NCBI GenBank assembly: GCA_036262075.1
Contig: DATAJO010000003.1
Location: forward strand, 15,464 to 79,463
DNA from: Candidatus Limnocylindria bacterium
GTDB lineage: Bacteria > Chloroflexota > Limnocylindria > QHBO01
Direction of reading: 5' to 3'
DNA length: 64,000 nucleotides
Shown here: positions 3,219 through 48,789 of the stretch, one piece after another
Layout of the letters: every line of letters begins with the position of its first letter
How positions within the stretch are numbered: position 1 is the stretch's first letter
Notes under the pieces: model-generated
What the model saw: only the letters and a program-made list of their open reading frames with translations
Database searches by the model: none
What the model was told of the DNA's origin: nothing
Translations under genes and position numbers: made by a program

Positions 3219-3686
3219 CTACTCCTGGCCGAGGGCGCGACGCACGCTGGGGAGGCAGAGGAGCAGCATCGCCAGGCTCGGGACCGCGAAGCCGATGAGG
3301 AAGGCGGGGTGCCAGGGCAGGGCGACGACCGCGATGGCGGTGCCGACGGCGACGAGCAGCTGCACGACGGCCGACGTGGTCCAGGACCACGCCCGGCGTC
3401 GCCGCACGCCCCGTGCGGCGATCGCGGCCGCGACGCCGAGCAGGAACGCGCCGGCGGCGGCGAATTGGAGGAGCGTCTCGGCCCGGGCGCCGCTCTCGCC
3501 GCCGAGGAAGGTGCGCTCGGCGACAGCCAGCAGGCTGAGCACGATGGCGAGCGCCACCGTGGCGAGCGCCTCGACGAGGAGGACGATGCGGACGGAACCG
3601 ATGGCGGCGTTGCGCGAGATCGGCGCAGCGGGGGTGTCGGTGGCCTGGATGGCGGTCGGCAGGGCGGTCATGGGCGGAGTCTCCAC
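3219..3686 (-). CDS. hypothetical integral membrane protein
   Basis: 155 aa, 4 predicted hydrophobic helices; no family recognised. Confidence 0.4.
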   Translation of the reverse strand: METPPMTALPTAIQATDTPAAPISRNAAIGSVRIVLLVEALATVALAIVLSLLAVAERTFLGGESGARAETLLQFAAAGAFLLGVAAAIAARGVRRRRAWSWTTSAVVQLLVAVGTAIAVVALPWHPAFLIGFAVPSLAMLLLCLPSVRRALGQE

Positions 3687-3800
3687 GCGACGCTCGGCTC
3701 GCGATACGGCGGATTGCCGCTGCGGAGCCTACGTCATTCGTCCACGGCCGCCTACCCCCGCGACGCGGGGCGGCACGTGGCGTGCTTCATCGGCGCCGGC

Positions 3801-4301
3801 ATGGGGCGCGTGACGCGGATGCCGCATCGCAGCATGGAGGATCGGTCACGGGCGCTGGCCGAGGTCGAGGCCATCGCCTGGCTGCTCGACAACAGCATCC
3901 CCGTGCCCGGCACCGGTGGGCGGCGCTTCGGGATCGACGCGATCATCGGACTCGTGCCGGTGGCGGGCGACCTCGTCAGCGGCGTCATCGGGCTGTACGT
4001 CGTGTGGCGCGGCGCCCGCCTGGGCGTGCCGCGCATCGTCGTGGCGCGCATGCTCGCGACATCGGCGCTCGACCTCGTCATCGGCGGCATCCCGTTCATC
4101 GGCGACGCGTTCGACCTGTGGTTCAAGGCGAACACCCGCAACCTCGCGCTGGTTCGGCGACACCTCGCCGATCCGGGCGCCTCGACGCGCGACGACTGGC
4201 TGATCGTCGGCGGGCTCGTGCTGGCCGTGGTGGCGGTGATCGTCCTGATCGGCTGGCTGCTCGTATCGCTCGTGACCGCGGTGGCCGGCGCGCTCAGCTG
4301 A
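3801..4301 (+). CDS. DUF4112-like membrane protein
   Basis: Internal ATG at 3801 of the 3021..4301 ORF; upstream part is Arg/Gly junk. Product has the GIDAIIGLVPVAGDLVSGVIGLYVV motif typical of DUF4112. Confidence 0.55.
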   Translation: MGRVTRMPHRSMEDRSRALAEVEAIAWLLDNSIPVPGTGGRRFGIDAIIGLVPVAGDLVSGVIGLYVVWRGARLGVPRIVVARMLATSALDLVIGGIPFIGDAFDLWFKANTRNLALVRRHLADPGASTRDDWLIVGGLVLAVVAVIVLIGWLLVSLVTAVAGALS

Positions 4302-11890: not shown

Positions 11891-12814
11891 GTGCCGCTCG
11901 AGCCGCTGATCATCGTCAACCCCGTCGCCGGTGGCGGCCGTGCCGGTCGGCTCGTGCCGTGGCTGCGCGATCGGCTGTCCGGTGCGTCGCGAGGCCGGCT
12001 GCACGTCACCGCCCGCGCCGGCGAGGCGACCGACGTCGCGCGGGACGCGGCACGAGCGAACGTCGCTCGGGTGGTGGCGGTCGGCGGCGACGGGACGGTC
12101 CAGGAGGTCGTCAACGGGCTGCTCGCCGCGGACGGCACGAACGGATCGGCGCCGAGCCTCGGGATCATTCCGGTCGGGTCCGGCAACGATCTCGCCCGCA
12201 GCCTCCGGCTACCGCGTGCCACGCACATCGCGTACGCCCTGGCCACCGCGGGGCATGCCCGGCCGATCGACGTCGCGCGTGCCAGCGATCGGGCCGGGAG
12301 GAGCCGATGGTTCGCGTCCGCCGGGGGCATCGGCTTCGATGCCCAGGTGGCGGCCGCCATGGCGACGCGCTCCGGATGGCAGCGCGGCTCGGTGGGATAC
12401 CTGCTCACCACGCTCAGCGAGCTCCGGCGATTCTCGAACCGGCATATCAGCCTCAGCCTCGATGGCACCGCCACCGAGCTCGACGTCCTGTTCGTGGCGT
12501 TCGCGAACGGCGCGTACTACGGGGGCGGGATGCGGATCGCGCCGGACGCGCGGCCGGACGACGGGTTCCTCGACGTCTGCGTCGTCGGCGACGTCAGCCG
12601 CCTCACCGCCATCCGCCAGATCCCGAACCTGTACCGCGGGACGCATGTCAGTCATCGGGCAGTGGCCGTCAGCCGGGCGTCCAGGATGACGATCGAGGGG
12701 GGCTCCGACACGCTCGTCCACCTCGATGGCGAGCCGTTCGGCTCGCTGCCGCTCGACGTCGAGCTCGTGGCCGGCAGGCTCGGGATCGCCTCGGTCGCGC
12801 CGGCAGTGCGCTAG
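11891..12814 (+). CDS. diacylglycerol-kinase-family lipid kinase (YegS/DagK-like)
   Basis: GTG start; IIVNPVAGGGRAGR, GGDGTVQEVVNGL, PVGSGNDLAR motifs of the DAGK catalytic domain. Confidence 0.8.
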   Translation: MPLEPLIIVNPVAGGGRAGRLVPWLRDRLSGASRGRLHVTARAGEATDVARDAARANVARVVAVGGDGTVQEVVNGLLAADGTNGSAPSLGIIPVGSGNDLARSLRLPRATHIAYALATAGHARPIDVARASDRAGRSRWFASAGGIGFDAQVAAAMATRSGWQRGSVGYLLTTLSELRRFSNRHISLSLDGTATELDVLFVAFANGAYYGGGMRIAPDARPDDGFLDVCVVGDVSRLTAIRQIPNLYRGTHVSHRAVAVSRASRMTIEGGSDTLVHLDGEPFGSLPLDVELVAGRLGIASVAPAVR

Positions 12815-12823
12815 GCTGCCGGG

Positions 12824-13075
12824 ATGGTGAGCCAGGAGGCGGGTGCCCCGAAGGTCGGCGCGGAGGTGCGTGGCAAGCGCGGCCGGCGCATCGGCACCGT
12901 CGACGCCGTCTTCGCCGATTACCTGCTCGTGCGCACCGCGGGCCTCCTGCCGGTCGATCTCTACGTCCCGCGGCCGGAGACGAGGCTCGAGGGCGACGCC
13001 GTCGTCGTCGACGCCGATGCGCGCGAGGCGTACGCGCGCTGGCATCGGCCGCTCAAGCGCGCGCCCCACCCGTGA
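12824..13075 (+). CDS. small hypothetical protein (PRC-barrel-like, possibly DUF2171)
   Basis: 83 aa, good GC3; RIGTVDAVFADYLLVRT motif. Family assignment uncertain. Confidence 0.4.
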   Translation: MVSQEAGAPKVGAEVRGKRGRRIGTVDAVFADYLLVRTAGLLPVDLYVPRPETRLEGDAVVVDADAREAYARWHRPLKRAPHP

Positions 13076-13215
13076 CGGCCTTCGCTCGACCGGTGCTCGA
13101 CGCGCTGCGGGACGAGATGGAGATCCACGTCCACCCCGCCTGAGCCGCCTGAGCGCGGGCGGGGGAGCGGCGCGGGCTGGTGGCGCGCATCGGTCTTGCA
13201 GTACCCTCAGGCGTG

Positions 13216-14181
13216 ATGGACGAGCATTCCGACACGATCCAGCCGCTCAACCCGCGCCCGCCGTACGAGCCGGGCGACGCCGATGCGTTCTACGCGCACG
13301 TCGGATCGGGCGGCAAGATCGAGGCCGACGACTGGATGCCGGACGAGTACCGCGCCGCGGTCCTGAAGTTCGTCGAGATGCACGCCAACTCCGAGCTCAT
13401 GGGCGTGCTGCCGGAGCGCGACTGGATCATGCGCGCGCCGACCCTGCGCCGAAAGCTCGCGCTGACCTCGAAGATCCAGGACGAGGTCGGGCACGCGCAG
13501 CTGCTCTATCGCGTGGCGGAGGACCTCGGCAAGCCGCGGGCGCAGATGCTCCAGGACCTGCTCGACGGCAGGACGAAGTTCCACAACGTCTTCCACTACC
13601 CGACGCGCTCGTGGGCCGATGTCGGGATCATCGCCTGGCTCGTCGACGCCGCCGCGATCGTGTCGCAGCAGGCCCTGCGCGACTCCTCGTACGCGCCGTA
13701 CGCGCGAACGATGAAGAAGATCTGCTGGGAGGAGTCCGTCCACATCATGCACGGCCGCGACGTCGTGCTGACCCTCATGAACGGCACCGGCGAGCAGCGC
13801 GCCATGGTCCAGGAGGCGCTGGACCGATGGTGGGGCCCGCTCATGCAGATGCACGGCCCGCCGACCGACCCGGCGAAGGACAAGGACCTCCACTGGGGCA
13901 TCAAGTCGAAGGGCAACGAGCAGCTGCGCCAGGAGTTCCTCTCGATCTACGTGCCGCGCATCCGTGAGCTCGGCCTGCGCATCCCGGACCCGGCGCTGCG
14001 GCTGGACGAGGCGACGGGGCGCTGGGCGTACACCGAGCCCGATTGGGCCGAGCTGAAGGCCGTCGTGACCGGCCACGGTCCCGCATCGCAGTCGCGCCTC
14101 GAGTTCCGGCGTCTCAACTACGCCGAGACACAGTGGGTGCGCGACGCCCTCGTCGGCGCAGCGGGGACCGCCGCCGCCTGA
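13216..14181 (+). CDS. paaA: 1,2-phenylacetyl-CoA epoxidase subunit A
   Basis: Strong similarity by eye to PaaA (DWMPDEYR, EMHANSELMG, QDEVGHAQLLY, WADVGIIAWLVDAAAIVSQ). Start set at ATG 13216 because the first 12 codons of the 13180 ORF have low GC3. Confidence 0.85.
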   Translation: MDEHSDTIQPLNPRPPYEPGDADAFYAHVGSGGKIEADDWMPDEYRAAVLKFVEMHANSELMGVLPERDWIMRAPTLRRKLALTSKIQDEVGHAQLLYRVAEDLGKPRAQMLQDLLDGRTKFHNVFHYPTRSWADVGIIAWLVDAAAIVSQQALRDSSYAPYARTMKKICWEESVHIMHGRDVVLTLMNGTGEQRAMVQEALDRWWGPLMQMHGPPTDPAKDKDLHWGIKSKGNEQLRQEFLSIYVPRIRELGLRIPDPALRLDEATGRWAYTEPDWAELKAVVTGHGPASQSRLEFRRLNYAETQWVRDALVGAAGTAAA

Positions 14182-14224
14182 CGGCCTGCGGCCCATGCGC
14201 GCTGCGGATCTGCGGTCTTGCGGC

Positions 14225-14632
14225 GCCGTATGCGATTTATCGGTCCGTTTGGCGCCTGAGCTGAGGTTGGGGCTACGCCTGTTCTGTTTATCGGTGCGCA
14301 CATAGCCCGGGCGGGGACGAGGACGCCTTTGGGGCTACAGGCCTACCGATACATCGCATGGGCGTCGCCGCAACAGCCACCGCGGGCGACAAACCCCCGA
14401 TATATCGCCGAGGACCCCCGGGTCCTGCGGCCCCGTATGCGATTTATCGGTCCGTTTGGCGCCTGAGCAGATGTTGGGGCTACGCCTGTTCTGTTTATCG
14501 GTGCGCACATAGCCCAAGCGGGCGCGAGGGCGCCGTTGGGGCTACAGGCCTACCGACAAATCGCATGGGCGTCGCCGCAACAGCCACCGCGGGCGACAAA
14601 CGCCCGATATATCGCCGAGGACCCTCACGCCA
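14225..14632. repeat. two tandem ~207-bp repeat units (~90% identical), each with internal inverted sub-repeats built on TTATCGG/CCGATA, sitting between paaA and paaB
   Basis: The marker gtatgcgatttatcgg recurs at 14228 and 14435, so the period is 207 bp. Sub-repeat GGGGCTAC at 14268, 14329, 14475 and 14539. Inverted pair ATGCGATTTATCGG / CCGATACATCGCAT within each unit. Confidence 0.85.
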
Positions 14633-14673
14633 CGACGAGTGCGCCGCGTCAGGGGGCGCGGTACCCTTCGGTC

Positions 14674-15054
14674 GTGACTGATCCAGTCCCGGCGGTCGAG
14701 CGCGTGTGGGAGGTCTTCCGCCAGGACGACGAGGGCGACCCGATGATCCACGCCGGGAACGTGAATGCCCCCGACGAGGAGCTCGCGACGCACTATGCCC
14801 GCGAGTTCTACGGCCGCCGCGGCGAGTCGCATCGGCTGTGGATCGTGGCGCGCGAGGCGATCACCGAGCTCGACGATCCGGACCTCCTCAAGCCGCCGTT
14901 CGACCGCAGCCACAAGAAGCCCGGCGGCTACATCATCAAGCACAAGCTCGAGGCGGCGAAGGCCCGCGCCGCGGAAGGGACACCCGCCGAAGGGGCCGCC
15001 GCGGAAGGGGCCGCCGCCGAAGGGACACCCGCCGTCGAGGGGGCGACCGAGTGA
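14674..15054 (+). CDS. paaB: 1,2-phenylacetyl-CoA epoxidase subunit B, with Ala/Glu/Gly-rich C-terminal extension
   Basis: GTG 14674 in frame within the 14536..15054 ORF (upstream part crosses the repeat). VWEVF...HAGNV...WIV matches the PaaB core. Tail AAEGTPAEGAAAEGAAAEG is atypical. Start codon uncertain. Confidence 0.7.
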   Translation: MTDPVPAVERVWEVFRQDDEGDPMIHAGNVNAPDEELATHYAREFYGRRGESHRLWIVAREAITELDDPDLLKPPFDRSHKKPGGYIIKHKLEAAKARAAEGTPAEGAAAEGAAAEGTPAVEGATE

Positions 15055-15824
15055 CGGTGGCCGATGCGCTCGACGCGCCGGCACGCGCGGCGCTCGCGGA
15101 GCTGCTCCTGACGCTGGCCGACGACGAGCTCGTCATCGGCTTCTGGGACTCCGAGTGGACGGGCATCGCGCCGGTGCTCGAGGAGGACGTGGCGACGAGC
15201 TCGATCGCGCAGGACGAGATCGGCCATGCCAAGGCGCTGTACGAGCTGCTCGCCGAGCTGACGGACGATGATCCGGACCGGATCGCCTTCGGCCGTGCCG
15301 CCGAGGAGTACCGTCACGCCGCGCTGCTGAACCACGCGCGCGGCGATTGGGCGTTCAGCGCCGCCCGCCGCTACCTGTACGAGACCGCCGATGCCGTGCG
15401 GCTCGCCTCGCTGGCCCGCTCGGCGCATGCGCCGCTCGCCGCGCTGGCGGGGAAGATCCGGCGCGAGGAGACGTACCACCTCATGCACGCCGATGCCTGG
15501 CTGCGCCGCCTGGCCGATGCGCCCGCGCCCGCCTCGGATCGCCTGGCCGATGCGCTGCGCACGCTGTGGCCGGACGCGCAGGAGGTGTTCGCGCCCCTCG
15601 AGGGGGAGGCGGAGCTGACGCGCCGCGGCCTCCTGTCGGAGCCGATGACCGACCTGCATGCCGCCTGGCAGCGCTCGGTCCGGCCCGTCCTCGAGCCGAT
15701 CGCCGGTTCGCTCGAGGAGATCGGGCCCAGCCCGGACGGGCGGCAGCGGCGAACCGAGGACTTCCGCTGGCTCCACCGCGAGATGACGATGGTCGCGCGC
15801 TCGGTCGAGGGGGCGACGTGGTGA
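15051..15824 (+). CDS. paaC: 1,2-phenylacetyl-CoA epoxidase subunit C
   Basis: GTG 15051 overlapping the paaB stop (GTGA). LADDELVIGFWDSEW, AQDEIGHAKALY and EETYH motifs of PaaC. Confidence 0.8.
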   Translation: MTVADALDAPARAALAELLLTLADDELVIGFWDSEWTGIAPVLEEDVATSSIAQDEIGHAKALYELLAELTDDDPDRIAFGRAAEEYRHAALLNHARGDWAFSAARRYLYETADAVRLASLARSAHAPLAALAGKIRREETYHLMHADAWLRRLADAPAPASDRLADALRTLWPDAQEVFAPLEGEAELTRRGLLSEPMTDLHAAWQRSVRPVLEPIAGSLEEIGPSPDGRQRRTEDFRWLHREMTMVARSVEGATW

Positions 15825-16363
15825 GCGCCACCGCACGGCCGGCCGCCGCCTCCGACGCGGAGCGCCGCATCTGGGACGAGCTCGCCGCCATCCCGGACCC
15901 GGAGATCCCGGCCATCGGCCTCGTCGACCTCGGGGTCATCGGCTCCGTGGCCGTCGACGACGACGGCGCGGCGTGGATCGAGCTGCTGCCGACGTTCGTG
16001 GGCTGCCCGGCGATCGGGGTCATGCAGGCCGAGATCGAGCGCCGGGTCGGAGCGCTGGGCGTGGCGAAGGCGGTCGAGGTGCGGCTGAGCTTCGACCCGC
16101 CGTGGACGTCGGAACGGATCACGCCCGAGGGTCGCGAGCGGCTCCGCCGCAGCGGCTTCGCCCCGCCGGTCATGCCTCCGCCGACCGAGGCGGGGAGCGG
16201 GCTGACCGAGCTCGACGTGCTCGACACGCTGCCGCCCGCCGAGTGCCCGTACTGCGGGTCCCGCAACACGACCCTCGAGAACCCGTTCGGGCCGACCCTG
16301 TGCCGCGCGATCTACCACTGCGCCGACTGCCGGCAGCCGTTCGAGCAGATGAAGCGCGTCTAG
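15818..16363 (+). CDS. paaD: phenylacetate-CoA oxygenase subunit PaaD (MIP18/SufT-like with C-terminal zinc ribbon)
   Basis: GTG 15818 overlapping the paaC stop. IWDELAAIPDPEIP, LGVIGSV, and C-terminal CPYCGS...CADC. Confidence 0.8.
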   Translation: MVSATARPAAASDAERRIWDELAAIPDPEIPAIGLVDLGVIGSVAVDDDGAAWIELLPTFVGCPAIGVMQAEIERRVGALGVAKAVEVRLSFDPPWTSERITPEGRERLRRSGFAPPVMPPPTEAGSGLTELDVLDTLPPAECPYCGSRNTTLENPFGPTLCRAIYHCADCRQPFEQMKRV

Positions 16364-16378
16364 CCCGACCCGGCGGGC

Positions 16379-17398
16379 TTGCGGCCCCACGGTAGGCTGT
16401 CGCCGATGGCCCTGCCGGTCGCGCCGCTCGGTGCGGACCCCGCGCAGCCGATGCTGCGCGGCGACGCGGTGGAACGCGACGCGGAGGTCGCCGCCCCATC
16501 GCGCGCGTGGGCGCACCTGCGTCGCAGCCCGGCCTTCTGGTTCGGCGCCATCGTCGCGACGGCGATCGTGCTGCTCGCCATCGGCGCGGACGTCGTGGCC
16601 CGGTACGACCCGAACATCGCGATCCGCGGGAGCGGCCTCTCGGCCGACGGGCGTCCCGTCGGCCCGTCCGAGGAGTTCTGGCTCGGCACCGATCGGCTCG
16701 GGCGCGACTACGCGAGCCGCCTCCTCCACGGCGCGCGCACATCGCTGATCGTCGCGCTCGGCGCGAACGCCGTCGCCGCCCTCATCGGCACGCTCGTCGG
16801 CGCGACCGCCGCATACGCCGGCTCGCCGCGCGTCACGCTGCGGGTCGGGCGCTGGCGGAGGATCGTCGCTCTGCCGGTCGAGGCGCTGCTGATGCGCGCG
16901 ACCGATGCGCTGCTCTCGTTGCCGGTGCTGCTGCTGGCGATCGCCCTCGCCGCGATCCTCGGCCCGAGCCTGGTGCTGCTGACGATCGTCATCGCCGCCG
17001 TGTGGTGGACGACGACCGCCCGGATCGTCTTCAGCCAGGTGCGCGTCATCCTGGCGCAGGACTTCATCGAGGCGGCGCGGGCCATCGGTGCTCGGCCGCT
17101 TCGCATCCTCGTGGTGCACGTGCTCCCGCACATCGTGCCGCTGGTGGTCGTGTATGCCACGCTTGGCATCGCCGCGGTCGTCCTGTTCGAGTCGACGCTC
17201 TCGTTCCTCGGTGCGGGTCCGCCGCCGCCGGCGGCGTCGTGGGGAACGATGATCGCCGAGCACGCCAGCTACTACCGCTCCGACCCGCGACTGCTCCTCC
17301 TGCCCGGTGCCGCGATCGCGCTGACCGTGCTGGCCTTCAACCTCCTCGGCGACGCGCTGCGCGACGCCCTCGACCCGCGCGTCGCGAGCCAGGGGTGA
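16379..17398 (+). CDS. ABC transporter permease (peptide/nickel type, DppC/OppC-like)
   Basis: 339 aa, 6 TM helices, permease signature region, C-terminal NLLGDALRDALDPR. Confidence 0.8.
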   Translation: MRPHGRLSPMALPVAPLGADPAQPMLRGDAVERDAEVAAPSRAWAHLRRSPAFWFGAIVATAIVLLAIGADVVARYDPNIAIRGSGLSADGRPVGPSEEFWLGTDRLGRDYASRLLHGARTSLIVALGANAVAALIGTLVGATAAYAGSPRVTLRVGRWRRIVALPVEALLMRATDALLSLPVLLLAIALAAILGPSLVLLTIVIAAVWWTTTARIVFSQVRVILAQDFIEAARAIGARPLRILVVHVLPHIVPLVVVYATLGIAAVVLFESTLSFLGAGPPPPAASWGTMIAEHASYYRSDPRLLLLPGAAIALTVLAFNLLGDALRDALDPRVASQG

Positions 17399-17428
17399 CC
17401 CCGTCGGCCGCCGATCCGTCGCGCGGCA

Positions 17429-17453
17429 GGAATAGGGAATTCTCCCGATGCGC
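17429..17453 (+). promoter_or_regulatory. copy 1 of a conserved ~24-33 bp motif GAATAGGGAATTCTCCCGATGCGC, upstream of the substrate-binding-protein gene
   Basis: 22 of 24 identical to 23256..23279; contains the imperfect dyad GGGA-ATTC-TCCC. Confidence 0.4.
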
Positions 17454-17530
17454 CGCGGTGGCCCGCGCCGCATCGTCCGACCGACGGCGACCGCCGGCCG
17501 CGGCGGTCCGCGCGCAGGAGGAGCAGATCG

Positions 17531-19207
17531 ATGTCCCGAGCCCATCCGACGCGACCATTCATCCTCGCTCTCACCGTGCTGCTGGTGCTTGCCGCGTGCG
17601 GAGGGGAGGGCACCGCGTCACCCTCGGAGGAGGCACCGGGCTCCGACAGCCCTCCCGGGTCGCAGGCGCCCGAGGGTGGCGGCACGATGACCATCGCCTG
17701 GGAGGCGGACATCCAGTCGATGGATCCCGCCATCGCCTATGACTACGTCTCGATCCCGGCGGTCCACATGGTGTTCGAGTCGCTCATCGGCTACGACGAC
17801 GGGACGACGCTCGTTCCCGTCCTGGCCGAGGCGATGCCGGAGGTCAGCCCGGACGGGCTCACGTACACCTTCGTCCTCCGGCCCGGCGTCAACTTCGTGA
17901 AGCCGGACGGGTCGGTCCTGCGCGAGATGACCGCGGACGACGTGGTCTACTCCCTCAACCGCGTGCTCAACCCCAACCTGACCCCGACGCCGTCGCCGGT
18001 GGCGTCCTCGTTCTTCGCCCAGATCGAGGGCGGCCAGGCGGTGCTCGACGGCGAGGCCCATGAGGCGACCGGCGTCGTCGCGGTCGACGACCGCACCGTC
18101 GAGATCACGATCCTGTCGCCGAACCGGGCGTTCCTCAACGTCCTGGCCATGACGTTCGGATCGGTGGTCCCGGAGGGCGAGGCGGGAACCGACACCGCCG
18201 CCTTCTCGGCGGCCCCCATCGGCACCGGCCCGTACTACATGGCCTCGTACACCGCCGGGCAGGCGGCGCACTTCGTGCGCAACCCGCACTACTGGGGCCC
18301 GGCACCGGCCATCGCCGAGGTCGAGTACGAGGTGGGCGTCGACACCGTCACCCAGACGCAGCGCGCCCAGGCGAACACCCTCGATCTCATGGGCGACTCG
18401 ATTCCGACCGGGTCGCTGCCCGAGGTCCGCGACGACCCCGAGTACGCCGAGCGGTTGATCGAGGAGGCGACCGTCGCGGTGAGCTACGTCTCCATCGACG
18501 CCACGATCGAGGACCCGCCGCTCAACGACGTGCGGGTCCGTCAGGCGATCAACCACGCGATCGACAAGGAGAACCTCGTCGCCGTGGTCGGTGGGCGCGG
18601 GGAGCCCGCGAACTGCATCTTCCCGCCCGCCATCTCGGCTCACGATCCAGGATGCCAGCCGTACGACTACAACCCGGAGCGGGCGCGTGAGCTGCTGGCG
18701 GAGGCCGGCGTCCCCGACGGCTTCGCGACGACGTACTACACCGACACGACCGAGGACTCCGTCGCGCTCGCCCAGGCGATCCAGCAGGACCTGGCGGCCG
18801 TCGGGATCGACGTCGAGATCGTGAGCCAGGAGTTCGACGTGCTGCTCGAGACGATCCTCGTGCAGGGCAACGCGCCGCTCCTCGGCATCGCGTGGATCCA
18901 GGACTACCCGGACCCGTCCGACTTCTACGATCCGATCCTGTCGTGCGCGGCGGTCGGCGGCGGATTCAACACCTCCTGGGCGTGCTCCGAGGAGGCCGAT
19001 GCGATCGCCATCGAGGCGCTCTCCATGACCGACGAGGCGGAGCGCGACGAGGCGTACCGAGAGGTCCAGCGACTCGTCATGGAGGAGGCGCTGTGGGTGC
19101 CGACCTACTTCCCGACGGTCACGCACCTGCACTCCGATCGGCTGGAGGGAGCCTACTTCCACCCGGTCTGGAGCTGGGAGATCGTCGACTACTCGCTGAG
19201 CGAGTAG
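17531..19207 (+). CDS. ABC transporter substrate-binding lipoprotein (peptide/nickel family 5)
   Basis: Signal peptide plus lipobox (LAACGG), 558 aa, family-5 solute-binding domain features. Confidence 0.85.
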   Translation: MSRAHPTRPFILALTVLLVLAACGGEGTASPSEEAPGSDSPPGSQAPEGGGTMTIAWEADIQSMDPAIAYDYVSIPAVHMVFESLIGYDDGTTLVPVLAEAMPEVSPDGLTYTFVLRPGVNFVKPDGSVLREMTADDVVYSLNRVLNPNLTPTPSPVASSFFAQIEGGQAVLDGEAHEATGVVAVDDRTVEITILSPNRAFLNVLAMTFGSVVPEGEAGTDTAAFSAAPIGTGPYYMASYTAGQAAHFVRNPHYWGPAPAIAEVEYEVGVDTVTQTQRAQANTLDLMGDSIPTGSLPEVRDDPEYAERLIEEATVAVSYVSIDATIEDPPLNDVRVRQAINHAIDKENLVAVVGGRGEPANCIFPPAISAHDPGCQPYDYNPERARELLAEAGVPDGFATTYYTDTTEDSVALAQAIQQDLAAVGIDVEIVSQEFDVLLETILVQGNAPLLGIAWIQDYPDPSDFYDPILSCAAVGGGFNTSWACSEEADAIAIEALSMTDEAERDEAYREVQRLVMEEALWVPTYFPTVTHLHSDRLEGAYFHPVWSWEIVDYSLSE

Positions 19208-19253
19208 CGAACGCGGGGCCGCCGTCGGGGGGCGGCGGCCCAACCGCGCGCGC

Positions 19254-20198
19254 ATGATCCGCTACATCGGGCGTCGGCTGGCGTGGAGCGTGCTGGTCCT
19301 GGCCTTCGTCGCCGTCCTGACCTTCATCCTCATCTACGTCCTGCCCGGCGACCCGGCCCGGGCCGTGGCCGGCATCCACGCATCGGCGGAGGACGTGGCG
19401 CGCATCCGCGCGGCGCTCGGGCTCGACGAGCCGTTCGGGGTGCAGTTCGCCCGCTACGTCGGTCGCCTGGCGACCGGCGATCTCGGCTTCTCGTTCCATC
19501 GGCGGGCGGAGATCCTGCCGCTCCTCGTCGAGCGCTTCCCGGCGACGCTCCAGCTCGCCCTCGGCGGACTCGTCGTCGGCCTCGCCATCGGGCTGCCGAT
19601 GGGCGTGCTCTCCGCCGTCCGGCGCGGGACGAGCGTCGATCGCGCCTCGACGGCGACGACCGCGGTGCTCGTCTCGATCCCGTCGTTCTGGCTCGGCTAC
19701 GTGATCCTCGACGTGCTCGCCTTCCGACCCCTCGTGGCATGGGACGTCGCCATCTTCCCGATCGGCGGCTACGAGCCGTGGAGCCTGCGGCACCTCGCCT
19801 TACCGGCCCTCACGCTCGGTGCGGGCCTGGCGGCCTACTACGCCCGGCTGACCCGGACCGCGATGGTCGATCAGCTCGGCAGCGACTATGTCCGGACGGC
19901 GCGCGCCAAGGGCCTCGAGGGCCGGCTCGTCACCTGGCGCCACGCGTTCCGCAACGCGATGCCGACGCTCGTCACCCAGGTCGGCATCGACATCGGCCTC
20001 CTCCTCGGTGGCGTGGTGGTCGTGGAGCAGGTGTTCTCGTGGCCGGGCATCGGTCGGCTCGCCGTGGAGGCCATCGTGCAGACCGACCTGCCCCTGATCC
20101 TCGGCACCGTGGTGTTCGCGACGCTCATGATCGTCGTCGCCAATATCGTCACCGACGTGGCGGTCGCCGTCCTGGAGCCTCGGCTGCGCCGCGCCTGA
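19254..20198 (+). CDS. ABC transporter permease (DppB/OppB-like)
   Basis: 314 aa, 6 TM helices; MIRYIGRRL start typical of DppB; permease signature region. Confidence 0.85.
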   Translation: MIRYIGRRLAWSVLVLAFVAVLTFILIYVLPGDPARAVAGIHASAEDVARIRAALGLDEPFGVQFARYVGRLATGDLGFSFHRRAEILPLLVERFPATLQLALGGLVVGLAIGLPMGVLSAVRRGTSVDRASTATTAVLVSIPSFWLGYVILDVLAFRPLVAWDVAIFPIGGYEPWSLRHLALPALTLGAGLAAYYARLTRTAMVDQLGSDYVRTARAKGLEGRLVTWRHAFRNAMPTLVTQVGIDIGLLLGGVVVVEQVFSWPGIGRLAVEAIVQTDLPLILGTVVFATLMIVVANIVTDVAVAVLEPRLRRA

Positions 20199-20265
20199 CG
20201 CTCACCGCGCCTGGCGCTCGCCGCGCCTGGCGCTCGCCGAGCCTGACGCTCGCCGCGCCCGACGG
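20193..20265. repeat. tandem 16-bp repeat GCCTGRCGCTCRCCGM x ~4.5
   Basis: Units at 20193, 20209, 20225, 20241 and a partial at 20257; the first unit overlaps the permease stop codon. Confidence 0.8.
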
Positions 20266-20300
20266 CCGGGCGGCCCTTGTGCCGGTGCTGATAATCATCC

Positions 20301-23231
20301 ATGCCCGGGCGGATCTCGTGCCCGACGCTCGTCGGGCGGGAGGGAGAGCTCCAACGTATCCTGGCGCATCTCGCCGGTGAGTCCCCGGCACTCCTCGTCG
20401 TGCGCGGCGACGCCGGCATCGGCAAGACGCGCCTGCTCGACGAGGCGCTCGGCTCGGCCCGTGCCGGCGGGGCGACCGTCCTTGCCGGGGCGTGCATTCC
20501 CTTCGCGGGCCGGCGGCTCCCGTTCGGGCCGATTCTCGACGCCCTCCGGATCGCCGACGACGGGCCCGCGGCGACGGGCCTCGTGGCACTGCGCGCCGAC
20601 CTTCGACGGGTCGTCGACGCCGCCCCTCTCGGGGAAGACGACGGCGTCTCGCACGCCCGGGTCCTGAATGGCGCGGTCGACGCGCTCGAGCTTGCGGCGG
20701 GCGAATCGGTCGTCGTCCTGAGTGTCGACGACCTCCACTGGAGCGATGCCCCCACCCGCGATCTGCTGCTCGCCGTCGCCTCGAGCCGGCGCTCCGCCCG
20801 CGTTCGCCTCGTCGCCACGCTCCGGACCGATGAGGAGCACGAGGCGCTCAAGCCGATGCTGGCCGAGCTGACGCGCGCCGGGCTGCTCGACGTGCTCGAC
20901 CTCCAGCCGCTCGGCGTCGGCGCCGTGGACGAGCAGGTCACCGGCATCCTCGGGGCACCGCCCGCGAGAACCCTGCTCGACGCGGTGGCGCGCCGGTCGG
21001 GGGGAAATCCGTTCTTCGTCGAGGAGCTCGTGGCGGCGGCGCGTGGGGGCGATGCGGTCCTGCCCCCGAGCGTCGGCGAGGTGCTGCTCGTCAGGCTCGC
21101 GTCGCTCCCGGACGACGTGCTGGCGCTGCTGCGGACGATGGCGGTCCTCGGCGACAGCGTGCCGGACGCCCTCCTCGCGGCGGTGAGCGACGACGACCCT
21201 GCGACGGTCGCCGCGCGCCTGCGAACCGCGGAGGACGCGCACGTCGTCCGCATCGACCGTCGCGCCGGGACATATGCGTTCCGCCACGCGCTCATGCGCG
21301 AGGTGCTCTACGCCGACCTGCTCGCCGGTGAGCGGACCGCGATGCACGAGGCGGTCGCGCGCATCCTCGAGTCGGACCGTGCCAAGCGGCTGCTCTCACC
21401 CATGGCCCGGTCCCTCGCCCTGGCGGTCCACTGGGACGAGGCGGGGGACGTCGCGCGGGCCATCCCGGCGCTCGTGGCCGGCGCCCAGGCGGCGACGGCG
21501 GCGAACGCCCACGCCGACGCCCTGGAGCTCTATCGGCGCTGCCTGAGGCGGCTCGCGGATGACCCGAGCGCGGTCGAGACCGCCGGCAGCCGGCTCGATG
21601 AGCTCTACGCGCGCGCGGCGCACGCGGCCTTCCTGGCGGACGACACCGGCATGGCGATCGATCTCGCGAGACGCGCGGTCGAGCTGGCGGGGACGGACGA
21701 TGCAGCCCGCTCGGCGCTGCTCCACCAGCGGCTGTGCGAGTACCTCTGGGAGCACGGCGCGGGCGTGGAGTCGCTCGACATCGCGCGTCGCGCGTACGAG
21801 GTCGTGCCGGCCACGGCCGATCCGGCCATCCGCGCCGCCGTGGTCGGGTTCTGGGCATCGGCGCTCTGTGTCCTGAGCCGCTACGAGGAGGCCATCCCCG
21901 TCGCCGAGGAGTGCATCGAGATCGGACGCGCCCTGTCGGACCCGGCGACGATCGGTCTGGGGCTGGCGTGCCGCGGGGCGGCCGTGGCGGGCCTCGTCGA
22001 CGTCGAGGCCGGCGCGCGCGATTGCGCCGAGGCGATCGAGATCGCCCGAACCTCGAGCGAGGCCGATACCCAGCTCATCGCCTACATGAACGGGTCCTGG
22101 GTGATCGGCGTGCTGGCCGGGGATGCCGAGCGCGCCCTGGCGCTCGTCGCAGACTGGCAGGAGCTCCAGCGCCGGAGCGGACTCGAGCGGACGCGCGGCA
22201 TGTGGATGGCCGGATTCGCGGGTGACCTGCTGCTCCGGCTCGGCCGCTGGGACGAGGCGGACGAGGTGCTGAGCGAGGCACTGCGGCTCCCGTTCCGCGG
22301 CCCGTCGCGGCACGAGGTGGTGGCCAATGCCGCCATCATGCGCACCTGGCAGGGCCGGCTGGAGGAGGCCGATGCGCTGGCGCGCGAGGCCCTCGCGCTG
22401 GCCGCGCATGCCGGCACACTCCAGTTCACGGGGCTGAGCCACGCGATCGCCGTCGACGTCGCGCTCTGGCGCGGCGACACCGATCGCGCCGTCGAGCTGG
22501 TCGACGCCGCCATGCCGACCGTCGATGCCACCGAGGACCCGCTCTACACGCGCCACTTCTACGCGGCCGCGGCGCGCGCCTGCATCGAGCGCCGGGAGCG
22601 CCTGCGCGGGCGCCGGTCCGAATCGGAGCGCGAGGCGCTCATCCGGCGCGCGGAATCGTTCGCGCAGCGCGCCCGGTACGCTGGCGTGCTGAACGTCACG
22701 GCCCGGGCTCCGGAGACGCGCGCCTGGACCGCGCAGGCCGCGGCCGAGGTGGCACGGGCCACCGCGACCTTGACGGCCGCAGAGGAGTGGGACCGAACCC
22801 GCGACGCGTGGCACGCGGTCGGGGATCGAGCGCACGAGGCGTACTCGGCCCTCCGCTCGGCAGAAGCATCGCTGGCGTGCGGGCAGCGCGGCCGGGCGGC
22901 CGAGTCGATGCGCGCCGCACGCGAGCTCGCCGCCACGATCGGTGCGGAGGCCGTCGTCCGATCGGCCGATGCGCTCGCGGAGCGGGCTCGACTGCGTCCG
23001 GCCGGGGCCGCGGGCGCGACGACCGGCTTCGGCCTGACGGTGAGGGAGCTCGAGGTGCTCGACCTCGTGGCGCGCGGGCTGACGAATCGCGAGATCGCCG
23101 CGACGCTGTTCATCAGCGAGAAGACGGCCGGCGTCCACGTCTCGAACATCCTGGCGAAGCTCGACGTCACGAGCCGGGCACAGGCCGCGGCCATCGCGGT
23201 TCGCCACGAGCAGGAGCTGGCGAAGCACTGA
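20301..23231 (+). CDS. LAL-type (MalT-like) LuxR-family regulator: N-terminal P-loop NTPase, central helical repeats, C-terminal LuxR HTH
   Basis: Walker [15 protein letters not shown]; C-terminal [43 protein letters not shown]. Confidence 0.85.
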
Positions 23232-23255
23232 TCGGGGTGCGACGAGAGCGCCCTC

Positions 23256-23279
23256 GAATACGGAGTTCTCCCGATGCGC
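23256..23279 (+). promoter_or_regulatory. copy 2 of the conserved motif GAATACGGAGTTCTCCCGATGCGC, upstream of the PKD-domain gene
   Basis: See 17429..17453; located 25 bp after the LAL regulator stop. Confidence 0.4.
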
Positions 23280-23308
23280 GCGGCGGCCGGGCAGCCCACG
23301 GTTGACGC

Positions 23309-23989
23309 GTGTCCGTACGCATGCTGGCGCCCGCCGGGCCCATCGGTGCGACTCGCGCCCCGTCGGTCGGAGCCAGCCTCCGGCTGCCGCCACGGGACTG
23401 GCTGCGCGCATCGTGGGAATGGGACGATGGATCCGTCGAGCCGGTCGCGGCGCCATGGGCCTCGATCGTTCGGATGCGCACGGTCCATCGCTACGCGCGA
23501 CCCGGGGTGTACCGCGTCCGCCTCCGGGTCGAGGGCGACGGGGGGTGGTCGTCCGAGATGGGCGAGCGATACGTCGTGGTCAGCGGTCCCGGGCAGCTCG
23601 CCGCGTCGGGCTGGATTCGCGATCCGGTCCACCGCGCGGTGCCGGTCGGTTTGCTGCTCACGCCATCCGACGGTGCCCGGCTCGGATCGGCGCTGCTCCG
23701 ATGCCTCGTTCCCGACGGCGAGCTCGTCGCCTCGGACCTCGCCTGGATGGTCGCACCGGATCCCGGGTCGGTGCATTTCGGGGGTCACGCACGGCTCGGG
23801 ACGGAGGCCTCGTCCGACCGGCCGTACCGGGTCGACGTCGCGCTCGCCGCTCGCGAGCACCGCGGCGCGCGTCCTCACCTGACCGTCAGCGTCTATGCGG
23901 CCGGGCGCCGGCCCGGGAGCGACGCGCCCGAGATCAGGGTGTCGGGCGACCTGCGGCCGGGCGGGATCGATCTCGGGAGTCCCGGTTGA
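23309..23989 (+). CDS. PKD-domain-containing hypothetical protein
   Basis: WEWDDGSVE...HRYARPGVYRVRLRVEGDGG resembles the PKD consensus (WDFGDGS...HTY..GTYTVTLTV.D). Moderate GC3; no clear signal peptide. Confidence 0.4.
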   Translation: MSVRMLAPAGPIGATRAPSVGASLRLPPRDWLRASWEWDDGSVEPVAAPWASIVRMRTVHRYARPGVYRVRLRVEGDGGWSSEMGERYVVVSGPGQLAASGWIRDPVHRAVPVGLLLTPSDGARLGSALLRCLVPDGELVASDLAWMVAPDPGSVHFGGHARLGTEASSDRPYRVDVALAAREHRGARPHLTVSVYAAGRRPGSDAPEIRVSGDLRPGGIDLGSPG

Positions 23990-24104
23990 GGGCCGTTCAC
24001 CGATCCTGAGCGTGACGGGATCGGGATGCCCGGCTTCGCCGAGGCGCTCCCGCTGGCGTACGGCATCGGCGTTCGGCATCGGCGTTTGCGCTACCCTTCG
24101 GCGC

Positions 24105-25919
24105 ATGTCGATCGACCCTGACGAGCTGGGCGGCGACGCCGCGACCGACCTCGGGTCGGGCCACGGCGACCACCTCGCCGCGATGCGTCACAGCGCGGCG
24201 CATATGATGGCCGCGGCCGTGCTCGAGCTGTTCCCCGACGCGAAGCTCGGCATCGGTCCCGCCATCAAGGACGGCTTCTACTACGACTTCGACCTGCCGC
24301 GCCCGCTGACGCCGGCCGACCTCGAGCAGATCGAGGCCAAGATGCGCGAGCAGCAGGCCGCCGACCTGACGTTCGAGCACTCGAAGGACCTCCCGCGGGA
24401 CGAGGCCGTCACGCTGCTCGAGGAGCGCGGTCAGCCGTTCAAGGTCGAGATCGTCAACGACCTCGATCCCTCGGAGGGTCCGACGGTCTCGTTCTACCGG
24501 CACGGCTCCTTCGAGGACCTGTGCCGCGGCGGGCACCTCGACTCCACGAGGCAGCTCGGGGCGTTCAAGCTTTTGAACACGGCCGGCGCGTACTGGCGCG
24601 GCGACGAGACCCGGCCGATGCTCCAGCGCATCTACGGCACCGCCTGGGACACGCAGGAGGAGCTCGACCGCTACCTGTGGCGGCTCGAGGAGGCGAAGAA
24701 GCGCGACCACCGCAAGCTCGGCCGCGAGCTCGACCTGTTCACGTTCCACCCCGAGTCGCCCGCCGCGCCGTTCCTCCATCCGCGGGGCATGGCCATCTGG
24801 CGCGCCCTCGAGGACTGGTCGCGCGAGGTCCGCTCGGGCGCCGGCTTCCACGAGGTCCGCACGCCGAGCCTCGTGCGCAAGGAGCTGTGGGAGACGTCGG
24901 GCCACTGGGCGAACTACCAGGACAACATGTTCGTCCTCGACGACTACGACCACGTGTCCGGCCTCAAGCCGATGAACTGCCCGGAGGAGATCCTCATCTA
25001 CCGCACCCGGGCACGCTCGTATCGCGATCTGCCGATGCGCTTCAGCGACTACTCGGTCCTGTTCCGCAAGGAGCGCACCGGCGTCCTGGCCGGGATGTTC
25101 CGCGTGCGGCAGCTCACCCAGGACGACTCGCACGTCTTCTGCCGCGACGACCAGGTCGACGACGAGCTCCGCCTCGCCCTGTCGCTCGTCCGCAAGCAGT
25201 ACGCGCCGTTCGGGTTCGAGCCTCGGGCCAAGCTGGCGACGCGGCCGGAGAAGCGCATCGGCTCCGACGAGTTCTGGGAGCGTGCCGAGCAGCGCCTGCG
25301 CGACCGCCTCGAGGAGGACGGCATGTCCTACGCGCTCGACGAGGGCGGCGGGGCGTTCTACGGGCCGAAGATCGACATCTTCATCGAGGACGCGCTGGGC
25401 CGGGAGTGGCAGATGGCCACGATCCAGGCCGACTACCAGCTGCCGCAGCGCTTCGACCTCGAGTACCGCGCCGCCGACGGCAAGTTCGAGCGCCCGGTCA
25501 TCGTCCACTACGCGATCTACGGCTCGTTCGAGCGGTTCATCGGCATCATCACCGAGGAGTACGCCGGGGCCTTCCCGTTCTGGCTGGCGCCGGTGCAGGT
25601 CGTGGTCGTGCCGATCGCCGATCGCCACCTCGAGTACGCCGAGTCGGTGCGGGCCGCCCTGGCCGATGCCGGCCTGCGGGCGGAGGTCGACGCGCGCTCC
25701 GAGCGCATGCAGGCCAAGCTGCGCGAGGCGCAGGAGCAGAAGATCCCGGTCATGGTCGTGGTGGGGGACCGCGACGCCGAGGCCGGTGCCGTCTCGCCTC
25801 GGCTGCGCACCGGCGAGTCGTCGCAGGGCGTCCCGCTCGCCGAGTTCGTCGCCGATCTCGTCGCGCGCAACGCGGTCCGCGAGCTGTGGCCGGCGCCGCC
25901 GAGCGGTCCGGAGTCCTGA
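24105..25919 (+). CDS. thrS: threonine--tRNA ligase lacking the N-terminal TGS domain
   Basis: ATG 24105 inside the 23895..25919 ORF. HSAAHMMAAAV marks the editing domain; class II motifs FRVRQLTQDDSHVF and GAFYGPKID; anticodon-binding domain present. Confidence 0.9.
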   Translation: MSIDPDELGGDAATDLGSGHGDHLAAMRHSAAHMMAAAVLELFPDAKLGIGPAIKDGFYYDFDLPRPLTPADLEQIEAKMREQQAADLTFEHSKDLPRDEAVTLLEERGQPFKVEIVNDLDPSEGPTVSFYRHGSFEDLCRGGHLDSTRQLGAFKLLNTAGAYWRGDETRPMLQRIYGTAWDTQEELDRYLWRLEEAKKRDHRKLGRELDLFTFHPESPAAPFLHPRGMAIWRALEDWSREVRSGAGFHEVRTPSLVRKELWETSGHWANYQDNMFVLDDYDHVSGLKPMNCPEEILIYRTRARSYRDLPMRFSDYSVLFRKERTGVLAGMFRVRQLTQDDSHVFCRDDQVDDELRLALSLVRKQYAPFGFEPRAKLATRPEKRIGSDEFWERAEQRLRDRLEEDGMSYALDEGGGAFYGPKIDIFIEDALGREWQMATIQADYQLPQRFDLEYRAADGKFERPVIVHYAIYGSFERFIGIITEEYAGAFPFWLAPVQVVVVPIADRHLEYAESVRAALADAGLRAEVDARSERMQAKLREAQEQKIPVMVVVGDRDAEAGAVSPRLRTGESSQGVPLAEFVADLVARNAVRELWPAPPSGPES

Positions 25920-47776: not shown

Positions 47777-47862
47777 CACGGGAATCTGGCACCCCCGCCG
47801 GCGGCGGCGGGCACCCGCCGCGGTCAGTCGCGGCGGGCATCCGCGGCGGGCATCCGCGACGG

Positions 47863-48789
47863 TCAGTCGCGGTGGAGGACGAGGCCGATGTGCCCGTACG
47901 GCGGCCGCGGGTCGGCGTACGTCTTCGTGCGGCCGTCATCGGCCTCGGCACCGACGTCCCACAGCCGGTTCTGCGCGTCGAACGAGACCGAGGCGAGCTG
48001 CGGCCATCGGTCGAGCATGCGGGTGCCGATCTCGTTGACGAGGTGCTGGATCGAGAGGCTGACGAACTCGTGGAAGACGGCGTTCGCGAGATCGGCGACC
48101 TGCTCCGAGGCGACGTACCTGGAGGGGTCCGCCAGGACGGCATCGGACGCATCGGCGTAGCGCCAGCCGATGTTCAGCCAGATGTAGAGCGGCCGATCCG
48201 GGCGCTCGGGGAGGGTCGTGTGCTCGTCGCGGGCGAAGTCGGCGAAGGCGGAGCCGGTGACCTTGATGAGCTGGAGGTCCCGGCGACCGGACTCGTGATC
48301 GGTGATCACGACGCTGCCGTCGTCGGTGCGCGCCAGCTCGAGGCGGGCGGAGCCCGCGTCGCATCGGTCTCTGCTGAAGAGCCGATCTGACGCCTCGAAT
48401 CCGTCGCCGTCGGCCGCGGGCACGAGGGCGGCGGGGAAGGGCAGGTCGCGCCCGAGCATCGTCAGGCGCTCCATGTGCGGGTACGTGTCGAGGAAGGCCG
48501 TGCCGACCTCGAGCAGCCACTCCTCCAGGCTGCGGGCGCGCGCCGTGAGCGAGGCGGCGTGGATGAAGTTCTTCATCGTGTCGGTCGCCACGACCTTGCG
48601 GTTGTCGCCCTTCGTGTACGCGTCGATGAACTCGGTGCCGTGGACGACGACCTCGATCTCGGCCGCGGCGAGGATGTTCTCGCGGCCGGTGAACGGCGAC
48701 TCGGGGATCGGCGTGATGCCGGTCAGCGGCTCGGCGTAGGTGCGGTAGACCTTGACGTCGGCCTTGCCGTAGCGAATCTCGTGGCGCAC
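47863..48789 (-). CDS. pucL: urate oxidase (uricase)
   Basis: YGKADVKVYRT N-terminus; T-fold signature VVATDTMKN; 308 aa. Confidence 0.85.
   Translation of the reverse strand: MRHEIRYGKADVKVYRTYAEPLTGITPIPESPFTGRENILAAAEIEVVVHGTEFIDAYTKGDNRKVVATDTMKNFIHAASLTARARSLEEWLLEVGTAFLDTYPHMERLTMLGRDLPFPAALVPAADGDGFEASDRLFSRDRCDAGSARLELARTDDGSVVITDHESGRRDLQLIKVTGSAFADFARDEHTTLPERPDRPLYIWLNIGWRYADASDAVLADPSRYVASEQVADLANAVFHEFVSLSIQHLVNEIGTRMLDRWPQLASVSFDAQNRLWDVGAEADDGRTKTYADPRPPYGHIGLVLHRD

Follow-up and report, generated by a model that had tools for sequence, protein, structure and literature searches.

Several described systems bear on the repeat analysed here, a tandem pair of palindromic units between the phenylacetate-degradation genes paaA and paaB in a 64,000-nucleotide (nt) stretch of contig DATAJO010000003.1 from a Candidatus Limnocylindria bacterium, an uncultured, soil-type member of the Chloroflexota (hereafter, the window). 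Miniature inverted-repeat transposable elements (MITEs), such as Correia/NEMIS in Neisseria, ERIC in enterobacteria, and RUP in the pneumococcus, are 100-300 bp long and contain no open reading frame (ORF). Their termini are complementary, they have the potential to form a hairpin over their whole length, they may be co-transcribed with neighboring genes, and their presence varies between close relatives. Mycobacterial interspersed repetitive units (MIRUs) are 46-101 bp long, non-palindromic, and found at ~40 dispersed loci, often with in-phase small ORFs that preserve coupling. Among repetitive extragenic palindromes (REPs), dimers can be tandemly reiterated (PMC3733652). The PaaR operators of Burkholderia cenocepacia are single 15-bp inverted repeats located between -35 and -10 (PMC2770484).

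The array at the paaA-paaB junction is a known kind of sequence that belongs to no known family. We give about an even chance to the view that it is a lineage-specific intergenic palindrome, near-neutral or selfish, that has undergone local duplication, and we do not read it as a dedicated regulator.

RESULTS

Two 207-bp palindromic units between paaA and paaB

The stop codon of paaA (ending at 14181) and the GTG start codon of paaB (14674) are separated by a gap of 492 bp; coordinates are positions in the window, and features are on the + strand unless otherwise marked. Tandem Repeats Finder reported a repeat at 14214-14624 with a period of 207, 2.0 copies, 93% matches, no indels, and a score of 731, and this array outranked every other repeat of the 64-kb window by far. 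Its two units (unit 1, 14214-14420; unit 2, 14421-14627; both listed without strand) together occupy most of the gap and are identical at 192 of 207 positions, with 6 of the 15 differences falling within the apical 20 nt. An earlier interpretation, made from the letters of the DNA and referred to below as the sequence-only reading, had described two such tandem units in a 492-bp gap as well as inverted pairs within them, and both were confirmed. The 25-mer GTATGCGATTTATCGGTCCGTTTGG was found only at the two expected positions, and all four occurrences of TTGGGGCTAC fell within the array. The G+C content was 66% in the gap, compared with 72% in the window.

The left flank (14182-14213) is CTGCGG-rich. 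Within it, 14183-14199 is similar to the opening ~20 nt of a unit (GGCCTGCGGCCC-ATGCG compared with GGTCCTGCGGCCCCGTATGCG), and CCTGCGGCCC is present at both 14185 and 14424. The right flank (14628-14661) is unique and GC-rich, with a small local hairpin (GCGCCGCG..GGCGCGG).

When a unit was compared with its own reverse complement, positions 19-195 matched with 66% identity, indicating that each unit is one long imperfect palindrome running from end to end. The inverted pair ATGCGATTTATCGGT / ACCGATACATCGCAT (15 nt, 93% complementary, separated by 100 nt) was detected within the units. The module is a palindrome of ~203 bp plus a 4-bp linker. In unit 1 all reading frames contain a stop codon, neither strand has a frame open across both units, and the small ORFs of the array gave no match in Pfam.

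The predicted fold of the whole spacer had a free energy of -254.7 kcal/mol, with a z score against dinucleotide shuffles of -3.95 on the + strand and -2.77 on the - strand. Each unit was predicted to fold end to end into one hairpin of 74 pairs (unit 1, -97.9 kcal/mol, z -3.19; unit 2, -108.7 kcal/mol, z -5.13). Long hairpins, as anticipated from the sequence, are predicted, with folds that beat the shuffles, and a non-coding, structured array is supported. No compensatory change between the two units was found in the 74 predicted pairs, so the two copies give no evidence for selection on structure. Rfam returned no match at the gathering threshold, the best sub-threshold scores being 14-16 bits against thresholds of 37-80. 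No terminator-like site was detected in 12800-15300, and a consensus sigma-70 promoter scan returned none. The integron attC core patterns RYYYAAC and GTTRRRY were absent from the + strand of the spacer, with no integrase among the ORFs scanned.

A 15-bp motif kept in both arms

In an alignment of the four arms, the 15-bp motif ATGCGATnTATCGGT, with the inner dyad CGAT-NN-ATCG, was the clearest of the few blocks kept in both arms. Each unit contains four copies, arranged ++-- with centers 51, 61, 51, and 44 bp apart. The sequence-only reading had counted at least four TTATCGG/CCGATA cores per unit in alternating orientation; the four TATCGG/CCGATA cores of each unit do not alternate. On the + strand, site 1 is at 14230-14244 in unit 1 (ATGCGATTTATCGGT) and 14437-14451 in unit 2, and site 2 is at 14281-14295 in unit 1 (a degenerate copy, ..TTCTGTTTATCGGT) and 14488-14502 in unit 2. 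On the - strand, site 3 is at 14345-14359 in unit 1 (ATGCGATGTATCGGT) and 14552-14566 in unit 2 (ATGCGATTTGTCGGT), and site 4 is at 14396-14410 in unit 1 (CGGCGATATATCGGG) and 14603-14617 in unit 2. All five occurrences of CGATNNATCG in the 64-kb window, and all six near-matches to the 15-mer, fell within the array. All sites are at least 45 nt upstream of the -10 box of paaB described below.

Two further features of the motif were considered and set aside. The spacing of the sites (51, 61, and 51 bp, near whole helical turns) is only approximately in phase and was not used as evidence. Resemblances by eye to Dif/Xer-like sites and DnaA boxes (GGTGCGCA.., TTATC..) were dropped as too short to be meaningful.

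Search for other copies of the unit

We searched for a second copy of the unit with blastn (word size 7) and with nhmmer profiles of the units and arms. None was detected in the 64-kb window, and blastn and nhmmer likewise found none in ~120 kb from relatives (fetched loci). No match was obtained by blastn against plasmid and phage collections. The arm pattern GCGATWTATCGGN{2,3}GTTTGNCGCC was then scanned against GTDB genomes, JGI metagenomes, and viral contigs, the host genome itself being in neither scanned collection. It matched 3 times in 185,579 GTDB species genomes, 5 times in JGI metagenome contigs, and not at all in viral contigs. Every match was the bare 25-mer without extension, and the number was about that expected by chance. 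HMMER with a 107-aa ORF spanning the repeat gave no match among 1.84 billion representatives, and a six-frame concatenate of the repeat gave none among 5.8 billion proteins. No target-site duplication was found, the flanks and linker being CTGC / CCCG / CTCA, and in a search for an empty site the joined flanks (78 nt) aligned to the spacers of relatives no better than shuffles. A dispersed MITE or REP family, as proposed in the sequence-only reading, was therefore not shown in the window, the relatives, or the collections searched.

The paaA-paaB junction in relatives

The closest homologues of PaaA (93% identity, ~320 aa) are in metagenome bins of Chloroflexota / 'Candidatus Limnocylindria'. 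We compared the paa locus in nine distinct relatives, labeled here by locus number. The closest, L023, has a PaaC 96% identical to that of the window, and its contig ends 24 nt inside paaB, with the junction outside it. Elsewhere the boundary takes a different form in nearly every relative: paaA and paaB share a 4-nt overlap (GTGA) in L006-8, and the spacers measure 13 bp (L019/20), 81 bp (L001), roughly 100-160 bp (L022), about 190 bp (L002), 230 bp (L021), and 332 bp (L011/12). In L009 and one JGI contig, the junction holds a whole M14 peptidase gene on the opposite strand, and a second JGI contig, whose PaaA protein is the same (P0003), has two other, unrelated ORFs there. From one locus to another, the junction extends from a 4-nt overlap to over 1.1 kb, and contigs sharing P0003 hold either the peptidase gene or the two ORFs. 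The junction behaves as an insertion or turnover hotspot.

None of the spacers of the relatives resembles the repeat of the window, and they are alike only in a 12-18-nt block just upstream of paaB. Because these spacers are variable and unlike the repeat, the repeat is lineage-specific and located at a fast-turnover boundary. Its absence from the orthologous loci compared also argues against an old spacer shared by the clade; the sequence-only reading had named such a shared spacer, together with a lack of other copies in the genome, as favoring an old local duplication over a mobile or functional element. The L022 spacer contains GCGATATATC within a small palindrome that scored above all 300 shuffles, and CATCGCATGG and GGTATCGG are present in the L001 spacer; these sequences suggest faint echoes of the 15-mer. 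Small repeats of their own were also seen in the spacers of L011 (CACACCAGRGTGAG twice, 3967-4298) and L021 (GCTGCAATTCAWGCC twice, 3458-3687), and both are unrelated to the unit of the window.

A candidate leaderless promoter of paaB

A -10-like box, TACCCT, is located at 14662-14667, 6 nt before GTG 14674, and is the sole TAnnnT on either strand of the 492-bp spacer. A GCGGTAsnCT block was common to all split junctions and places the end of a TAnnnT hexamer 6-9 nt upstream of the paaB start codon: TACCCT at +6 in the window, TAGGCT at +7 in L001 and +9 in L009, and TACGCT at +7 in L002 and L022 and +8 in L011 and L021. The box was thus present at paaB in 7/7 split junctions (window included) and in 0/2 coupled junctions. 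The earlier picture of an insertion inside a coupled paaA/paaB operon is accordingly misleading for this clade. The paaB start had also been regarded as unclear and possibly remodeled by the element. It is GTG 14674, which aligns with the homologues (..ERVWEVF..) and has the conserved promoter box before it, and remodeling is not supported.

The same geometry was found at other genes. In the relatives, a TAnnnT hexamer ended 6-9 nt before 23 of 73 called starts, compared with 5 hits over the remaining offsets between 0 and 54, some of the 73 starts being orthologous and hence not all independent. In the window it was found at 6-9 nt for 21 candidate starts among 50 ORFs. About one-third of the genes in these Limnocylindria genomes carry TAnnnT 6-9 nt before ATG or GTG, without a Shine-Dalgarno sequence. 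Examples in the window are at 13202-13207, 14662-14667, 12806-12811, and 24086-24091, and others were seen in L001, L006, L009, L011, L019, and L021. Internal operon genes, paaC and paaD among them, overlap the preceding gene or carry a GGGGA/GGAGG box. In high-GC bacteria, TAnnnT near the start codon without a Shine-Dalgarno sequence is a signature of leaderless genes (PMC3160421, PMC3898074, PMC12340547), and an early survey counted only ~5% leaderless genes in Chloroflexi (PMC3160421).

Since the box is found at split and not at coupled junctions and has the leaderless geometry, paaB(CD) is most likely transcribed from its own promoter as a leaderless mRNA, judging from sequence. With such a promoter, the array would lie between two transcription units, 3' of the paaA stop codon and 5' of the paaB promoter.

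The paaA gene is preceded by a -10-like box of the same sequence, TACCCT at 13202-13207, 8 nt upstream of ATG 13216. This box is embedded in the clade-conserved sequence TCTTGCrGTACCCT, and the same block is found 5' of paaA in L001, L006, L011, and L019. The start of unit 1 (14214-14223), GGTCTTGCGG, resembles GGTCTTGCAG in the conserved paaA promoter block (13191-13199), directly before the -10 box. The resemblance may be fortuitous or may be left over from a promoter duplication.

Assembly support for two units

The two-unit copy number rests on assembly. An independent short-read assembly, Logan contig SRR12767728_281800, corresponds to window positions 14572-23758 with 100% identity. It starts at the first 31-mer containing the unit-2-specific base at unit position 182. 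On the assumption that Logan contigs are products of a k = 31 graph, this is the break expected if the preceding 42 nt occur twice.

Gene neighborhood and other variable sequences

The paaA gene (13216-14181, + strand) encodes subunit A of 1,2-phenylacetyl-CoA epoxygenase (321 aa; Pfam PF05138, PaaA_PaaC, E 4.9e-81). It is followed on the same strand by paaB (14674-15054; 126 aa with a repetitive Ala/Glu/Gly tail; Pfam PF06243, E 6.4e-16), paaC (15051-15824), and paaD (15818-16363; gene call in L018). The GTG start of paaC overlaps the paaB stop codon, and PaaC has the same sequence as NCBI HEX2765122.1 ('MAG TPA: Candidatus Limnocylindria bacterium'). Before paaABCD, the window encodes DUF72, a WYL-domain regulator, MsrB, a lyase, a molybdenum oxidoreductase, a GDSL lipase, and a diacylglycerol kinase. 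After it come an opp-like ABC transporter, a LuxR-type regulator, and thrS, and further along the window are infC, rplT, pheST, mutS2, a penicillin-binding protein gene, fusA, ruvC, urate catabolism genes, and malate synthase. This gene content is that of ordinary core chromosome. No transposase, integrase, or Y1 enzyme (REP-associated tyrosine transposase, RAYT) was detected among 50 ORFs supported by third-codon-position G+C content and scanned across the window, and a tRNA/tmRNA scan gave no match.

The C-terminal tail of PaaB, AAEGTPAEGAAAEGAAAEGTPAVEG (14967-15034), is encoded by a 15/30-nt tandem repeat. The tail in L023 is shorter and different, and the PaaB proteins of other relatives are only 97-105 aa, indicating that the tail is a length-variable low-complexity extension. 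Two other tandem repeats were seen in the window. A 16-nt repeat, CGCCGCGCCTGACGCT, at 20187-20266 (~4.9 copies, 88% matches) starts in the last codons of an ABC permease gene (19254-20198) and occupies most of the gap to the LuxR-type regulator gene. A 13/26-nt repeat resembling GCGGCGGGCATCC, at 47804-47875, covers the 3' end of a uricase-family gene (47863-48789, - strand) and adjacent downstream sequence.

The interval between paaD and thrS (16379-23990 in the window, 1786-4736 in L023) is a second variable spot. It holds the opp-like ABC transporter, a 976-aa AAA16/LuxR regulator, and a PKD-domain ORF in the window, and an NPCBM-associated protein and an ABC-2 transporter in L023. No gene was called between paaD and thrS in L001, and thrS directly follows paaD in L006. 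The nucleotide identity between L023 and the window is a mosaic, 93.8% across paaBCD (14698-16361) and 99.0% across thrS (24067-25272), which suggests recombination across the region.

DISCUSSION

In the reading to which we give about an even chance, a palindromic module underwent a single tandem duplication, probably through slippage or unequal recombination. The module may have originated as a decayed MITE/REPIN-like insertion or as a locally generated inverted duplication. The clade would have split paaA and paaBCD into two transcription units, with the gap between them repeatedly opened and refilled, and the repeat would be tolerated because paaB has its own -10 box and no translationally coupled operon is broken. 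A transcript reading out of paaA would fold into two hairpins of ~190 nt each, which would shield the paaA 3' end from exonucleases and hinder read-through, a putative role as stabilizer or insulator. Hindered read-through would leave paaA insulated from the paaB promoter, as proposed for REP elements and bacterial interspersed mosaic elements (BIMEs).

Several observations weigh against this reading. There is no T-run 3' of either hairpin, and the hairpins are therefore not canonical intrinsic terminators. The motif is kept in both arms of a unit whose remaining arm sequence is only ~66% symmetric, which hints at a sequence-specific constraint not expected under a purely neutral model. The single TAnnnT in the spacer compares with ~5 expected from base composition (an estimate, with a Poisson p of ~0.05), and this shortage could reflect selection against stray promoters. 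The transcription start of paaB and the effect on the 3' ends of paaA transcripts are predictions from sequence. Finally, with 64 kb of the host in view, the chance of overlooking a family of tens of copies per genome would be about one-half.

The last point bears on the possibility that the units belong to a dispersed, non-autonomous mobile family of the MITE or REP/REPIN/BIME type, present here as a tandem pair and mobilized in trans by a transposase encoded elsewhere, which we regard as conceivable but doubtful. Such a family would fit a unit of ~200 bp, a size typical of MITEs, that forms one whole-length hairpin with complementary ends (GGTCYTGCGGC / GCCGAGGACC, 10 pairs), is positioned between unidirectional genes, and is absent from the orthologous sites of relatives. 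The terminal inverted repeats are as in MITEs, and they are weak evidence here because the whole unit is palindromic. The tetramer CTAC (GTAG on the - strand) is strand-specific, with three occurrences in each unit and none in the opposite orientation. REP clusters with tandemly reiterated dimers are known, and the Chloroflexota member Thermomicrobium roseum has clustered GTAG REPs (PMC3733652). In addition, contigs of two independent assemblies end at this junction or close to it. Unlike in REPs, however, the GTAG tags of the array are not at the foot of a 20-40-bp stem-loop and instead lie inside the long helix or beside non-palindromic sequence. Against mobility also stand the lack of a second copy in the 64 kb, the loci of relatives, and the collections searched, the lack of a target-site duplication or a transposase or RAYT gene among the ORFs scanned in the window, and the failure of the comparison with relatives to reconstruct a clean empty site. 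An assembly artefact would be another explanation, with two strain versions of one unit placed head to tail. The DNA comes from a metagenome-assembled genome, and short-read graphs break at the array; the junction between the units (..GGACCCCCGGGTCCTGCGG..) is nevertheless unlike either outer flank, so that no simple allele bubble accounts for it, and the Logan contig begins exactly where a true internal repeat predicts. We give the artefact only the slimmest chance.

The motif raises the alternative that the array consists of eight putative sites for a dimeric DNA-binding protein, recognizing the 15-bp ATGCGATnTATCGGT and controlling or insulating the paaB promoter. This explanation, also raised by the sequence-only reading, would account for the motif being the best-conserved block between the arms, for the confinement of CGATNNATCG and the 15-mer near-matches to the array within the window, and for the related sequences in the L022 palindrome and the L001 spacer. 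We nevertheless consider it quite improbable, as neither the paaA promoter nor any other part of the window outside the array carries the motif, its distance to the -10 box varies between the window, L001, and L022, and no regulator gene is adjacent. The palindrome also reaches far past the sites, the sites do not share the placement of the B. cenocepacia PaaR operators between -35 and -10 (PMC2770484), and the motif departs from the published consensus for Thermus thermophilus PaaR, AACnAACGTTnGTT (PMC6651687). A functional structured RNA, such as a cis-regulatory leader of paaB, a processing site, or a small RNA, appears very improbable. The predicted stability on the + strand is significant; the structure, however, is a plain long helix with no Rfam family and no covariation, the spacers of two relatives show no unusual degree of structure (z -0.71 in L002 and +1.52 in L011), and the array would not be in the paaB mRNA because the promoter box of paaB is downstream of it. 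Lastly, the 207-bp module may be the first recognized copy of a new Chloroflexota element in which the four ATGCGATnTATCGGT are putative protein-binding sites, as a mobile element or as an operator array, a proposal that we judge unlikely. In its mobile version, the element would be non-autonomous and recognized by some transposase or recombinase; in its operator version, an eight-site array would act on the leaderless paaBCD promoter. If the module were such an element, the paaA-paaB junction would be a true insertion hotspot, and promoter capture would let the ancestral operon split repeatedly.

The repeat by itself is minor, one more orphan among the many intergenic palindromic repeats already familiar in bacteria. 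Of greater note are the split junction and the pervasive leaderless geometry. The series of junctions is a natural set for studying how an operon breaks up once its downstream gene gains a leaderless promoter and how the gap fills with repeats or genes. If the motif binds a protein, or if the unit is dispersed, it would represent a new element family in a phylum with few such elements described.

Among the known systems, the PaaR and PaaX operators share with the array short dyad-symmetric motifs beside paa genes. They differ in that known operators are single sites in or next to the core promoter, whereas the 15-mer of the array is unlike the Thermus consensus and the paaA promoter is without the motif. 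With MIRUs, the array shares a tandem repeat between operon genes in a high-GC organism rich in leaderless genes and a period that is a multiple of three (207 = 3 x 69), but every frame of unit 1 is closed by a stop codon and paaB, downstream, carries a promoter box of its own. MITEs are matched in size, in the lack of an ORF, in complementary ends and hairpin potential, and in patchy presence among relatives; the array differs from them as a direct tandem pair with a 4-bp linker, with no target-site duplication, no dispersed copies detected, and no parent insertion sequence with matching ends recognized in the window. REP, REPIN, and BIME elements are 20-40 bp in their REP units and present in tens to hundreds of copies with a RAYT gene, whereas the palindrome of the array is ~200 bp, no short stem has GTAG at its base, and neither another copy nor, among the ORFs scanned, a RAYT was found in the window. 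Like them, however, the array is extragenic, GC-rich, palindromic, and located between unidirectional genes, with oppositely oriented sub-elements that fold into one large hairpin, and the roles proposed for these elements, 3'-end mRNA stabilization and attenuation of read-through, match the effect that the array would have on paaA.

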